A stretch of DNA of 64,000 nucleotides. Origin: Escherichia coli (GTDB taxonomy: Bacteria > Pseudomonadota > Gammaproteobacteria > Enterobacterales > Enterobacteriaceae). Made by a program: the position numbers and the translations under genes. The stretch lies in assembly GCF_003991155.1 (NCBI RefSeq), contig NZ_CP031293.1; one strand, given 5' to 3'. Below the pieces are notes generated by a model. It searched no databases. It was not told where the DNA came from and saw only the letters and a list, made by a program, of their open reading frames with translations. Positions within the stretch are counted from its first letter, which is position 1. The number at the start of each line of letters is the position of its first letter. Below, one piece after another: positions 60,297-61,995 of the stretch.

Positions 60297-60488
60297 ACCC
60301 TCAAAATTTCTCTTTCACTCCATTGTCTTTTCGCTTTACTCCCGTTCATTCAACTTAAGTCTCCATTTTTTTGCATTACTGCTATCTGTCAGACCTCCGT
60401 TTTTCTGTTGATAAAACACTCTTTTTGACGTTTTTACAGACTAATTGAGCGTGAAGTGTGCAAACGATAAAAGTGTGGGAAAAATTGT

Positions 60489-60516
60489 TTGACTTATAAG
60501 TCTCAGAAAGTAATAT
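60489..60516 (+). promoter_or_regulatory. putative sigma-70 promoter of serV-argVYZQ tRNA operon
   Basis: TTGACT, 16-bp spacer, TAATAT, then GC-rich discriminator gtgcgcc. Confidence 0.5.
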
Positions 60517-60578
60517 GTGCGCCACGCAGCGACGATGAGCGATAAACAAGTTCTTCGAAGCACTCGTAAGAGGCGTGT

Positions 60579-60671
60579 GGTGAGGTGGCCGAGAGGCTGA
60601 AGGCGCTCCCCTGCTAAGGGAGTATGCGGTCAAAAGCTGCATCCGGGGTTCGAATCCCCGCCTCACCGCCA
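60579..60671 (+). tRNA. serV: tRNA-Ser (anticodon GCU)
   Basis: 93-nt cloverleaf with long variable arm; GGTGAGG...CCTCACCGCCA; anticodon loop CTGCTAA. Confidence 0.93.
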
Positions 60672-60674
60672 TTT

Positions 60675-60751
60675 GCATCCGTAGCTCAGCTGGATAGAGT
60701 ACTCGGCTACGAACCGAGCGGTCGGAGGTTCGAATCCTCCCGGATGCACCA
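60675..60751 (+). tRNA. argV: tRNA-Arg (anticodon ACG), copy 1
   Basis: 77-nt GCATCCGTAGCTCAGCTGGATAGAG...CGGATGCACCA; anticodon loop CTACGAA; copy-to-gene-name assignment is tentative. Confidence 0.93.
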
Positions 60752-60815
60752 TCTCTTACTTGATACGGCTTTAGTGGCGGTATCAAAAAATCTGCAGTAA
60801 AGTAAGTTTCCCGAT

Positions 60816-60892
60816 GCATCCGTAGCTCAGCTGGATAGAGTACTCGGCTACGAACCGAGCGGTCGGAGGTTCGAATCCTCCCGGATGCACCA
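60816..60892 (+). tRNA. argY: tRNA-Arg (anticodon ACG), copy 2
   Basis: Identical 77-nt sequence; name assignment tentative. Confidence 0.93.
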
Positions 60893-60954
60893 TCTCTTAC
60901 TTGATATGGCTTTAGTAGCGGTATCAATATCAGCAGTAAAATAAATTTCCCGAT

Positions 60955-61031
60955 GCATCCGTAGCTCAGCTGGATAGAGTACTCGGCTACGAACCGAGCG
61001 GTCGGAGGTTCGAATCCTCCCGGATGCACCA
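60955..61031 (+). tRNA. argZ: tRNA-Arg (anticodon ACG), copy 3
   Basis: Identical 77-nt sequence; name assignment tentative. Confidence 0.93.
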
Positions 61032-61093
61032 TCTCTTACTTGATATGGCTTTAGTAGCGGTATCAATATCAGCAGTAAAATAAATTTCCCGAT

Positions 61094-61170
61094 GCATCCG
61101 TAGCTCAGCTGGATAGAGTACTCGGCTACGAACCGAGCGGTCGGAGGTTCGAATCCTCCCGGATGCACCA
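61094..61170 (+). tRNA. argQ: tRNA-Arg (anticodon ACG), copy 4
   Basis: Identical 77-nt sequence; name assignment tentative. Confidence 0.93.
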
Positions 61171-61263
61171 TATTCTCCGTAACCTTCAGCAATGAAGGTA
61201 TCGAAGAGGTAGCGATATTAACCGCACGCCAGCAGCGGCCCGAAGGGCGAACGCCAGTGAGTC

Positions 61264-61281
61264 ATCCTCCCGGATGCACCA
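61264..61281 (+). other. 18-nt duplicate of tRNA-Arg 3' end (tRNA remnant)
   Basis: atcctcccggatgcacca exactly matches the 3' end of the tRNA-Arg genes; flanking tatt also shared. Confidence 0.6.
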
Positions 61282-61428
61282 TATTATCCAAAAAATTTCC
61301 TTCAAAAATATCTCATTTCTAAATAACTACTTTATCCATTTCCTGAATTTTCTTCTCCTTCGCCATCAGCGACAAAATCAAGCAATTACGCTAAAGTAGC
61401 GTCATATTTTTCGACTTGCGAGAAGACC

Positions 61429-61995
61429 ATGTACGAGCGTTATGCAGGTTTAATTTTTGATATGGATGGCACCATCCTGGATACCGAGCCTACGCACCGT
61501 AAAGCGTGGCGCGAAGTATTAGGGCACTACGGTCTTCAGTACGATGTTCAGGCGATGATTGCGCTTAATGGCTCGCCCACCTGGCGTATTGCTCAGGCAA
61601 TTATTGAGCTGAATCAGGCCGATCTCGACCCGCATGCGTTAGCGCGTGAAAAAACAGAAGCAGTAAGAAGTATGCTGCTGGATAGTGTCGAGCCGCTTCC
61701 TCTTGTTGAAGTGGTGAAAAGTTGGCATGGTCGTCGCCCAATGGCTGTAGGAACGGGGAGTGAAAGCGCCATCGCTGAGGCATTGCTGGCGCACCTGGGA
61801 TTACGCCGTTATTTTGACGCCGTCGTCGCTGCCGATCACGTCAAACACCATAAACCCGCGCCAGACACATTTTTGTTGTGCGCGCAGCGTATGGGCGTGC
61901 AACCGACACAGTGTGTGGTCTTTGAAGATGCCGATTTCGGTATTCAGGCGGCCCGTGCAGCAGGCATGGACGCTGTGGATGTTCGCTTGCTGTGA
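61429..61995 (+). CDS. yqaB: HAD-family sugar phosphatase (fructose-1-phosphate phosphatase)
   Basis: 188-aa ORF with HAD motif FDMDGT. Confidence 0.88.
   Translation: MYERYAGLIFDMDGTILDTEPTHRKAWREVLGHYGLQYDVQAMIALNGSPTWRIAQAIIELNQADLDPHALAREKTEAVRSMLLDSVEPLPLVEVVKSWHGRRPMAVGTGSESAIAEALLAHLGLRRYFDAVVAADHVKHHKPAPDTFLLCAQRMGVQPTQCVVFEDADFGIQAARAAGMDAVDVRLL

Follow-up and report, generated by a model that had tools for sequence, protein, structure and literature searches.

A truncated tRNA-linked module, probably of the RtT type, behind the argVYZQ tRNA-Arg genes of Escherichia coli

The 111 nucleotides that follow the fourth tandem tRNA-Arg gene of an Escherichia coli genome are very probably a partly deleted copy of an RNA module of the RtT type, a class of elements linked to tRNA genes. 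In a preliminary description of the window (the whole 64-kb stretch of DNA analysed here), an 18-nt repeat of the tRNA 3' end that lies downstream of the array had been read either as a decayed fifth tRNA copy or as the footprint of site-specific integration and excision. We find that this remnant is neither the scar of a genomic island nor simply a decayed fifth tRNA gene. The copied tRNA end pairs within intact modules, and the 'remnant' is therefore a working part of what is, in intact modules, a predicted folded RNA. The modules linked to tRNA-Arg are a divergent RtT subtype that is missed by both the Rfam threshold and the NCBI annotation, and the copy in the window is an ordinary member of this known family, one that we call decaying because it carries a 22-nt internal deletion. 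The argVYZQ cluster itself is well known; the arg-linked RtT subtype is conserved, with compensatory changes, across the Enterobacterales.

The tRNA array and the truncated module of the window

The locus is alaS-csrA-serV-argVYZQ-yqaB-yqaA of E. coli, with gshA after yqaA. A tRNA-Ser(GCU) gene is followed by tandem identical tRNA-Arg(ACG) genes, with csrA on one side and yqaB on the other, which identifies the serV-argVYZQ operon (Table 1). As had been described, the four tRNA-Arg genes are identical, 77 nt each, no difference being found when their sequences were compared, and the measured spacers agree with the range of about 62-64 bp that had been given. A candidate promoter precedes serV, in a region where promoter-like matches to the consensus are not commoner than in shuffles, and a terminator-like hairpin before yqaB likely marks the end of the tRNA operon.

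Table 1. Features of the serV-argVYZQ locus and of the module behind its last tRNA-Arg gene (positions in the window)
Feature	Position	Strand	Basis
Candidate operon promoter, TTGACT-16-TAATAT; weak	60489..60516	+	Consensus scan; 62 nt upstream of serV
serV, tRNA-Ser(GCU)	60579..60671	+	ARAGORN; Rfam tRNA 56.8 bits
tRNA-Arg(ACG) copy 1	60675..60751	+	ARAGORN; Rfam tRNA 67.1 bits
Ordinary short spacer, 64 nt	60752..60815	+	
tRNA-Arg(ACG) copy 2	60816..60892	+	ARAGORN; Rfam tRNA 67.1 bits
Ordinary short spacer, 62 nt	60893..60954	+	
tRNA-Arg(ACG) copy 3	60955..61031	+	ARAGORN; Rfam tRNA 67.1 bits
Ordinary short spacer, 62 nt, same sequence as the spacer at 60893..60954	61032..61093	+	
tRNA-Arg(ACG) copy 4, argQ position	61094..61170	+	ARAGORN; Rfam tRNA 67.1 bits
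Probable truncated arg-type RtT-like module, 111 nt (intact 132-136 nt)	61171..61281	+	Covariance model R1
Module hairpin 1, 7-bp stem, GCAA loop (predicted)	61182..61199	+	Fold
Module hairpin 2 (predicted), GCGATATTAACCGC, weakened by G>A at 61215	61212..61225	+	Alignment, folds
Junction of the 22-nt deletion	61226..61227	+	Alignment against intact copy L001:1272-1404 and 47 others
Helix P4 of the RtT core (predicted), GCCC-GAA-GGGC	61238..61248	+	93% of cells paired; matches Rfam RtT consensus CGgCCCGaAGggCG
'Remnant', copy of the last 18 nt of tRNA-Arg	61264..61281	+	Identical to 61153-61170
Trailer TATTATCC, repeats the TATTCTCC found after the last tRNA	61282..61289	+	
Terminator-like hairpin and T run	61388..61412	+	Consensus scan; 17 nt before the yqaB ATG (61429)

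The repeated tRNA end reaches slightly beyond the tRNA. Joined to the TATT that follows it, the tRNA 3' end forms a 22-nt sequence, ATCCTCCCGGATGCACCATATT, with two exact sites at 61153-61174 and 61264-61285; the ends of the other three tRNA-Arg genes differ from it at 2 positions, both in the trailer. Extended to 26 nt (61153-61178 against 61264-61289), the repeat keeps 25/26 identity, and the 8 nt after the CCA of the module resemble the 8 nt after the CCA of the tRNA; at 61282..61289 other strains carry TCTTCTCC. The remnant comprises the AT of the T loop, the 3' strand of the T stem, the 3' strand of the acceptor stem and ACCA, and the gap that separates it from the last tRNA is exactly 93 nt (61171-61263). 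This 22-nt match and 93-nt gap bear out the preliminary description of an exact 18-nt repeat with a flanking tatt about 93 bp past the last copy. A 22-nt repeat is not expected by chance (0 in 100 dinucleotide-preserving shuffles) and this one recurs at the same place in thousands of genomes, so that there is next to no prospect of a chance match explaining the 18-22-nt repeat; the remnant had rightly been taken as a genuine partial tRNA copy.

The first base of the module that ends in this copy directly follows the CCA of the fourth tRNA-Arg gene; the module shares the strand of that gene and lies inside the tRNA operon. To build a covariance model, R1, 48 modules from other strains and genera were used and the window copy was left out. 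Searched against the whole 64-kb window, R1 gave a single match, that of the module (41.3 bits, E about 3e-8), compared with 85-145 bits for intact copies outside the training set, including 123.9 bits for the K-12 copy at the same position. The window copy aligns end to end with the 48 modules except for a 22-nt gap, at which the sequence GGCACCAGGGAGGATAACGTTG is missing. Since other genera and most E. coli have full-length copies, the deletion is the derived state; a 50-mer spanning the junction places the deletion allele in 95 of 5426 E. coli genomes, about 2%, and no microhomology was seen by eye at the junction. Strain TCM3e1 (NZ_CP066806.1), one carrier of this allele, matches the window at 100% identity over 61100-61460.

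The deleted nucleotides make up the 5' strand of the closing helix, the outer helix of the module, and the greater part of the same strand in helix P3. Of the core, the window copy retains P4 and the 3' strand of P3, and it lacks the outer helix, whose upstream strand, GCACCAGGGAGGAT, falls in the missing 22 nt. With the partner strand of the closing helix lost, the window copy probably no longer folds, and its predicted free energy is -34.4 kcal/mol (z=-2.1) against -56.2 kcal/mol (z=-4.98) for an intact E. coli module. Hairpin 1, which the window copy retains, has changes on both sides at 6 of its 7 pairs across genera.

Distribution and structure of the arg-linked modules

A 361-nt query over the region matched, at varying lengths, in 5425 of 5426 complete E. 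coli genomes. The unit found in this species is 133-136 nt long. It starts, with TATTCTCC, right after the CCA of a tRNA-Arg gene, and its final 18-19 nt repeat the end of that tRNA. It stands behind tRNA-Arg copy 1, copy 3 and/or copy 4, with 0-4 modules per operon, and five arrangements occur among seven sampled E. coli genomes (the window and six other loci). K-12 has intact modules at all three of these positions (behind argV, argZ and argQ), giving it 198-nt 'long spacers', and strain RIVM_C039205 has no module behind its last gene: there the CCA is directly followed by TCTTCTCCAAAAAATTTCC, elsewhere the sequence behind the remnant, so that the site is cleanly empty. The module core, searched without tRNA sequence, is present in 5018 of the 5426 genomes (about 92%), at 1-5 places each, all of them chromosomal; its absence from the remaining 8% or so marks the module as dispensable. 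The RtT core as such occurs, in the median E. coli genome, at 6 places.

With YqaB as an anchor, 78 loci encoding YqaB relatives were covered, nearly all in the Enterobacterales, and 66 arg-linked modules from more than 20 genera were extracted, nearly all of them 131-138 nt long. The genera include Escherichia, Salmonella, Klebsiella, Citrobacter, Enterobacter, Kosakonia, Pluralibacter and Cedecea, as well as Serratia, Rahnella, Hafnia, Erwinia, Pantoea, Brenneria and others. Conservation is high in the 3' 77 nt, which read GCACCAGGGAGGAT-AACGTTGCTTTAGCAACG-GCCCGNAGGGC-GAGGCGCAGCCGAG-TA-ATCCTCCCGGATGC-ACCA. In intact modules the two ends of this domain pair in a predicted 13-bp closing helix, with GCACCAGGGAGGAT as its 5' strand and the copied tRNA end as its 3' strand.

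RNAalifold, run on a MAFFT alignment, returned a poor consensus: it had 15 pairs, and the closing helix was not among them. An explicit structure of 38 pairs was therefore tested on 49 sequences. As this structure was taken from the single-sequence fold of one member, the proportion of paired cells is somewhat favoured: it reached 86.5%, against 31-49% when the partners were slid by 1-3 columns. The covariation score was 0.193 against at most 0.09 for slid partners, and none of 500 shuffles, which ignore phylogeny, attained it. The closing helix is paired in 95.7% of cells and has double changes (GC 38 / AU 7 / GU 3, and GC 43 / AU 2), two pairs of P3 have double changes as well, and in P5 a GC pair (35 sequences) alternates with CG (12). 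Where the tRNA end reads ATCTTCCTGGGTGC, as in Hafnia and Rahnella, the partner strand is correspondingly GGGAAGAT or AGGAAGAT, while a non-standard A.G pair beside P3 becomes G.A in 8 sequences. The two 5' hairpins align poorly between distant genera and are 64-67% paired. Part of the covariation in the closing helix may stem from concerted evolution or gene conversion with the neighbouring tRNA genes and not from selection on the RNA of the module.

Relation to RtT RNA

The rttR or rtT RNA comes from 178-bp repeats in the E. coli tyrT-tyrV operon (Bosl & Kersten 1991, as cited in PMC3318445 and PMC4986893). RtT RNAs are released from the transcripts of tyrT and other tRNA operons and are visible on northern blots, as described for tyrT and for Actinobacillus (PMC4986893); the Rfam structure of the family has covariation support (PMC8250186), and the family is stated to have no known function (PMC7542023; bioRxiv 10.1101/2024.07.17.603846). 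The literature on argQ, argVYZQ and rttR yielded no description of arg-linked modules, although older papers on the arg operon may describe its long spacers.

The arg module shares with RtT RNA its place directly behind a tRNA gene on the same strand, a 3' end copied from the final 18-19 nt of that tRNA, with the CCA, a closing helix that involves this copied end, variable copy number, tandem arrays and the core AACGUUGC..GCAACGGCCCGNAGGGCGAG..CGAGU(A/C)AUCC. To our knowledge, the only effect reported for the RtT family concerns how cells respond to amino-acid starvation. Intact E. coli arg copies carry the full RtT core (P3 CGUUGC/GCAACG, P4 GCCC/GGGC, and P5) ahead of the tRNA-end copy, and R1, the model of the arg type, also recognizes the RtT elements of tyrT (31-34 bits) and of lysT (25-71 bits). 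By blastn, the 3' 67 nt of the arg module are 82-85% identical to lys copies between cpoB and nadA, the locus of the lysT-valT-lysW-valZ-lysY-lysZ-lysQ operon, whose units score 46.7-60.6 bits with the Rfam RtT model (RF00391), above its gathering threshold of 45 bits. The arrangement there is the same, with internal copies behind lysT and lysY and two tandem copies behind lysQ; each copy, however, ends in ATCCTGCACGACCCACCA, the 3' end of tRNA-Lys and not that of tRNA-Arg, and the distal copies include the operon terminator in every repeat.

Within the arg locus itself, the Yersinia elements after the last tRNA-Arg gene and before yqaB are canonical RtT, at 70.8 and 73.8 bits with RF00391. 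Scores with this model grade downward from there: 42.4 bits for the copy of Pantoea dispersa, up to 39.7 bits for those of Klebsiella, 34.8 bits (E=3.8e-5) for the internal E. coli copy, in which model positions 46-130 are matched and the core is nearly identical to the consensus, 26.4 bits for Salmonella houtenae, and 22.5-23.5 bits for terminal E. coli copies. The window copy gave no match even at E<=10. Against the assignment to RtT it must be set that every E. coli arg copy lies below the threshold (no match, or 22-35 bits against 45) and that the 5' half of the arg type does not match the RtT model. In Escherichia, Klebsiella, Enterobacter, Pantoea and others, the arg-type module is missing the 5' part of RtT RNA, a tRNA-derived block ending in GGTTCGA and a GAGCG-N-AGCGAGA hairpin, and has two unrelated hairpins and an acceptor-like strand instead. 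The arg-type modules of these genera reach just 22-42 bits against the required 45 and have no PGAP annotation; at K-12, PGAP places three 'RtT sRNA' features at tyrT and none at the arg locus. Sub-threshold matches to plastid-ycf2, HPnc0260 and permuted-tmRNA were caused by the tRNA itself.

Origin of the copied tRNA end and proposed working of the module

The idea of a decayed fifth tRNA copy was right on two counts, as the window does hold a partial copy of the tRNA and this copy is decaying through its 22-nt deletion; it fails for the 93 nt before the remnant, which are unlike positions 1-59 of tRNA-Arg. In local alignment the interior of the module scored 10 against these positions, compared with a shuffled mean of 12.5, and neither ARAGORN nor the Rfam tRNA model found a tRNA in 61171-61281. 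A fifth tRNA-Arg gene that decayed neutrally together with its spacer, leaving its last 18 nt intact, would account for the deletion in the window copy, for the length of the module (133-136 nt, close to the 139 nt of a spacer-plus-tRNA unit) and for the 77 nt of its 3' domain, the same length as the tRNA; a 13-nt match between module hairpin 2 and the ordinary spacer (p about 0.001) and a further 23 nt identical to the tRNA in the Yersinia copy speak for it as well. Neutral decay would not, however, preserve length, sequence and base pairing from genus to genus, nor yield compensatory changes, and the same interior also stands behind tRNA-Lys and tRNA-Tyr genes, which makes such a history very unlikely. 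There is nevertheless a tRNA in the ancestry of the family. In canonical RtT copies two blocks, 63-67 nt apart, run collinear with the tRNA to which the copy belongs: the first ends at TTCGA of the T loop (23 nt in Yersinia Arg, 10 nt in Lys and 9 nt in Tyr) and the second is the last 18-19 nt of the tRNA. RtT therefore has the appearance of a tRNA 3' part whose T loop has taken up a structured insert. Of the two blocks, only the second is kept exactly in the arg-type module. With an interior unlike tRNA and the tRNA finders silent, a decayed fifth tRNA is an inadequate account of the module, though the family is tRNA-derived.

The segment from T loop to CCA is the one typically duplicated by integrases that target tRNA genes. 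The copied segment fits this pattern, direct repeats bound the unit, some strains have empty sites, and canonical RtT resembles the 3' part of a tRNA into whose T loop 63-67 nt have been inserted. All of this would suit a scar of the attL/attR type, left by an element that integrated into the 3' end of the last tRNA-Arg gene, duplicated the stretch from T loop to CCA and was later lost except for about 93 nt. The comparison of strains that had been proposed as the deciding check was run on the E. coli genomes and found no strain with an island, the outcome that had been named beforehand as speaking against integration. A query in which one spacer and tRNA were joined to the yqaB leader merged both halves into one match, within about 680 nt, in 5415 of 5425 E. 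coli genomes, and a large insertion is therefore possible in at most 10. The one exception that was inspected, KTa005, the weakest match, holds no integrase; what lies downstream of its module is an IS1 that an IS3 interrupts. With nothing larger than the module in those 5415 genomes, a scar is refuted as far as E. coli goes, and in the 78 orthologous loci from other species no large insertion was seen between the tRNA array and yqaB.

Nor was a carrier recognized among the phage, plasmid and viral sequences examined. The module was found in no phage record, the matches being misfiled chromosome contigs of Salmonella, and on no true plasmid, the 'plasmid' matches being misfiled chromosomes or chromosome fragments. 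Among 50,697 phage records none has a near-identical 3' half of tRNA-Arg except a misfiled Salmonella contig. Across 2.9 million viral contigs, one of two core patterns had 0 matches and the other 4 stretches, of which two were looked at: one belongs to host DNA that flanks a Mu-like prophage call, and the other is a coding region matched by chance. Att-site duplications, the tRNA fragments at the ends of prophages and islands, also place a direct repeat of the tRNA 3' part shortly downstream; unlike them, the locus in the window has no integrase or inserted element, and a conserved structured RNA module lies between its repeats. A unit of 132-136 nt that is kept with compensatory base changes in more than 20 genera, and that also sits between internal tRNA copies, is hard to reconcile with a scar, and we regard the integration and excision proposed in the preliminary description as highly improbable at this locus. 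The RtT family as a whole may still have an ancient origin in an integration-type event.

If the module is a divergent RtT element, its working can be sketched from the predicted structure. The 13-bp closing helix with its free ACCA tail would resemble the stacked acceptor and T stems of a tRNA, and would enclose three small hairpins common to the RtT elements of the tyrT and lysT operons, with two more hairpins 5' of the helix. Since the modules are part of the serV-argVYZQ operon and are oriented like its tRNA genes, they presumably share the transcript of the tRNAs. By analogy with rtT RNA, which reportedly leaves tyrT transcripts in broadly this manner, the tRNA-like end would let tRNA-processing enzymes free the module as a discrete stable RNA: RNase E would cut in the shared U/A-rich trailer, exonucleases would trim back to CCA, and RNase P could possibly cut at the foot of the closing helix. 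Functional RNAs from the spacers and trailers of tRNA operons offer a parallel, since there, too, a non-tRNA segment may become independent after processing; the 3' external transcribed spacer of glyW-cysT-leuZ base-pairs as a sponge for small RNAs. Copies would most simply be gained and lost when the identical tRNA genes undergo unequal recombination or gene conversion with one another, and a copy-number difference of rtT in Salmonella, a 175-bp VNTR, is consistent with this (PMC2658671).

It is tempting to join these elements in one scheme. All RtT-type elements, the arg-linked subtype included, would then be one family derived from the 3' portion of a tRNA, with a structured insert of 63-67 nt breaking up the T loop. 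They would have reached the operons of tRNA-Tyr, tRNA-Lys, tRNA-Arg and tRNA-Asn and would persist because their fold mimics a tRNA at its acceptor/T-arm end and serves as a decoy or regulator, tuned by differences in copy number between strains. Taken jointly, we consider this scheme speculative and rather unlikely to hold in all its parts. Should the tRNA-mimic reading be true, the targets could be tRNA-processing enzymes or other factors with an affinity for tRNA ends, among them RNase P, the CCA-adding enzyme, stringent-response factors or tRNA-targeting toxins.

For the window itself the finding is an ordinary one, with a modest lesson for annotation. Repeats of a tRNA end beside tRNA genes are routinely taken as scars of islands or prophages, and some of them belong to a structured RNA, which is relevant to island-prediction tools that use tRNA fragments. 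An RtT model extended with the arg-linked modules would annotate several more copies per genome. The natural presence, absence and deletion alleles at this locus provide ready-made strains for probing the role of RtT.

Variation and interruption of the tRNA-Arg array

In Pantoea allii, the last tRNA-Arg gene is followed by four tandem arg-type modules, each closed by the tRNA 3' end (L061:1395-1971; L-numbers denote fetched loci of other strains and genera), an arrangement resembling the distal arrays of tyrT and lysQ. The operon of E. coli RIVM_C039205 (L002) has only three tRNA-Arg(ACG) genes, and strains thus differ in the number of tRNA genes as well as of modules. On the upstream side of yqaB, many draft contigs break off no more than a few hundred bases from the gene (L010, L013, L019, L023, L025, L026, L031, L037, L038 and others); short-read assembly seems to fail at the repeated tRNA-Arg/module array, making module counts from draft genomes unreliable.

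The sole large interruption of this locus that we inspected is in E. coli KTa005, where yqaB is separated from the module by an inserted IS1 that itself contains an IS3-family element (L004:3238-5124). At the end of a viral-called IMG/VR contig carrying Mu-like transposase and repressor genes, IMGVR_UViG_2836850911_000005, three RtT repeats with terminators lie in tandem after a host tRNA-Lys gene (L091:12216-12712); we rejected these repeats as phage cargo and regard them instead as host flank.

The yqaB leader

Only 17 nt lie between the end of a terminator-like hairpin plus T run and the yqaB start codon (61429), leaving almost no space for a yqaB promoter downstream of the hairpin. Read-through may be what yqaB relies on for its expression, or else a promoter within the AT-rich stretch at 61290-61385. 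A mechanical 216-aa open reading frame (ORF) running antisense through the tRNA array was rejected as a gene, being an artefact of the repeats.

Coordinates of the leader hairpin, the rejected ORF and canonical RtT copies
Feature	Location	Strand
Terminator-like hairpin and T run	window 61388-61412	
Antisense ORF	window 60382-61032	minus
Canonical RtT, Yersinia thracica	L068:2095-2254	
Canonical RtT, E. coli lysQ-distal repeats	L005:1800-2111	
Canonical RtT, K-12 tyrT locus	L087:6519-7125	minus

Composition of the module and of canonical RtT

Adjoining the core helix P3, columns 78 and 99 of the module alignment (A1) hold a non-standard pair that co-varies, being A.G in 40 sequences, G.A in eight (from Pseudocitrobacter, Pluralibacter, Kosakonia and Kluyvera) and mixed in none, which suggests a conserved non-Watson-Crick contact. 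Column 78 is deleted in the window copy. An ordinary 62-nt spacer (60893-60954) and hairpin 2 of the module (61208-61220) have GTAGCGGTAT(C/T)AA in common in intact copies, a match of 12 of 13 bases (p ~0.001 by shuffling) that hints that spacers and modules share ancestry or have exchanged sequence; the window's hairpin 2 carries an additional G>A at 61215.

Canonical RtT consists of the 3' part of its own tRNA, split after the T-loop TTCGA by a structured insert of 63-67 nt, in the Yersinia, lysQ and tyrT copies. The 23 nt preceding the insert in the Yersinia RtT are identical to tRNA-Arg positions 37-59. Finding one and the same insert in the context of Tyr, Lys and Arg tRNAs prompts the question of how it came to spread.
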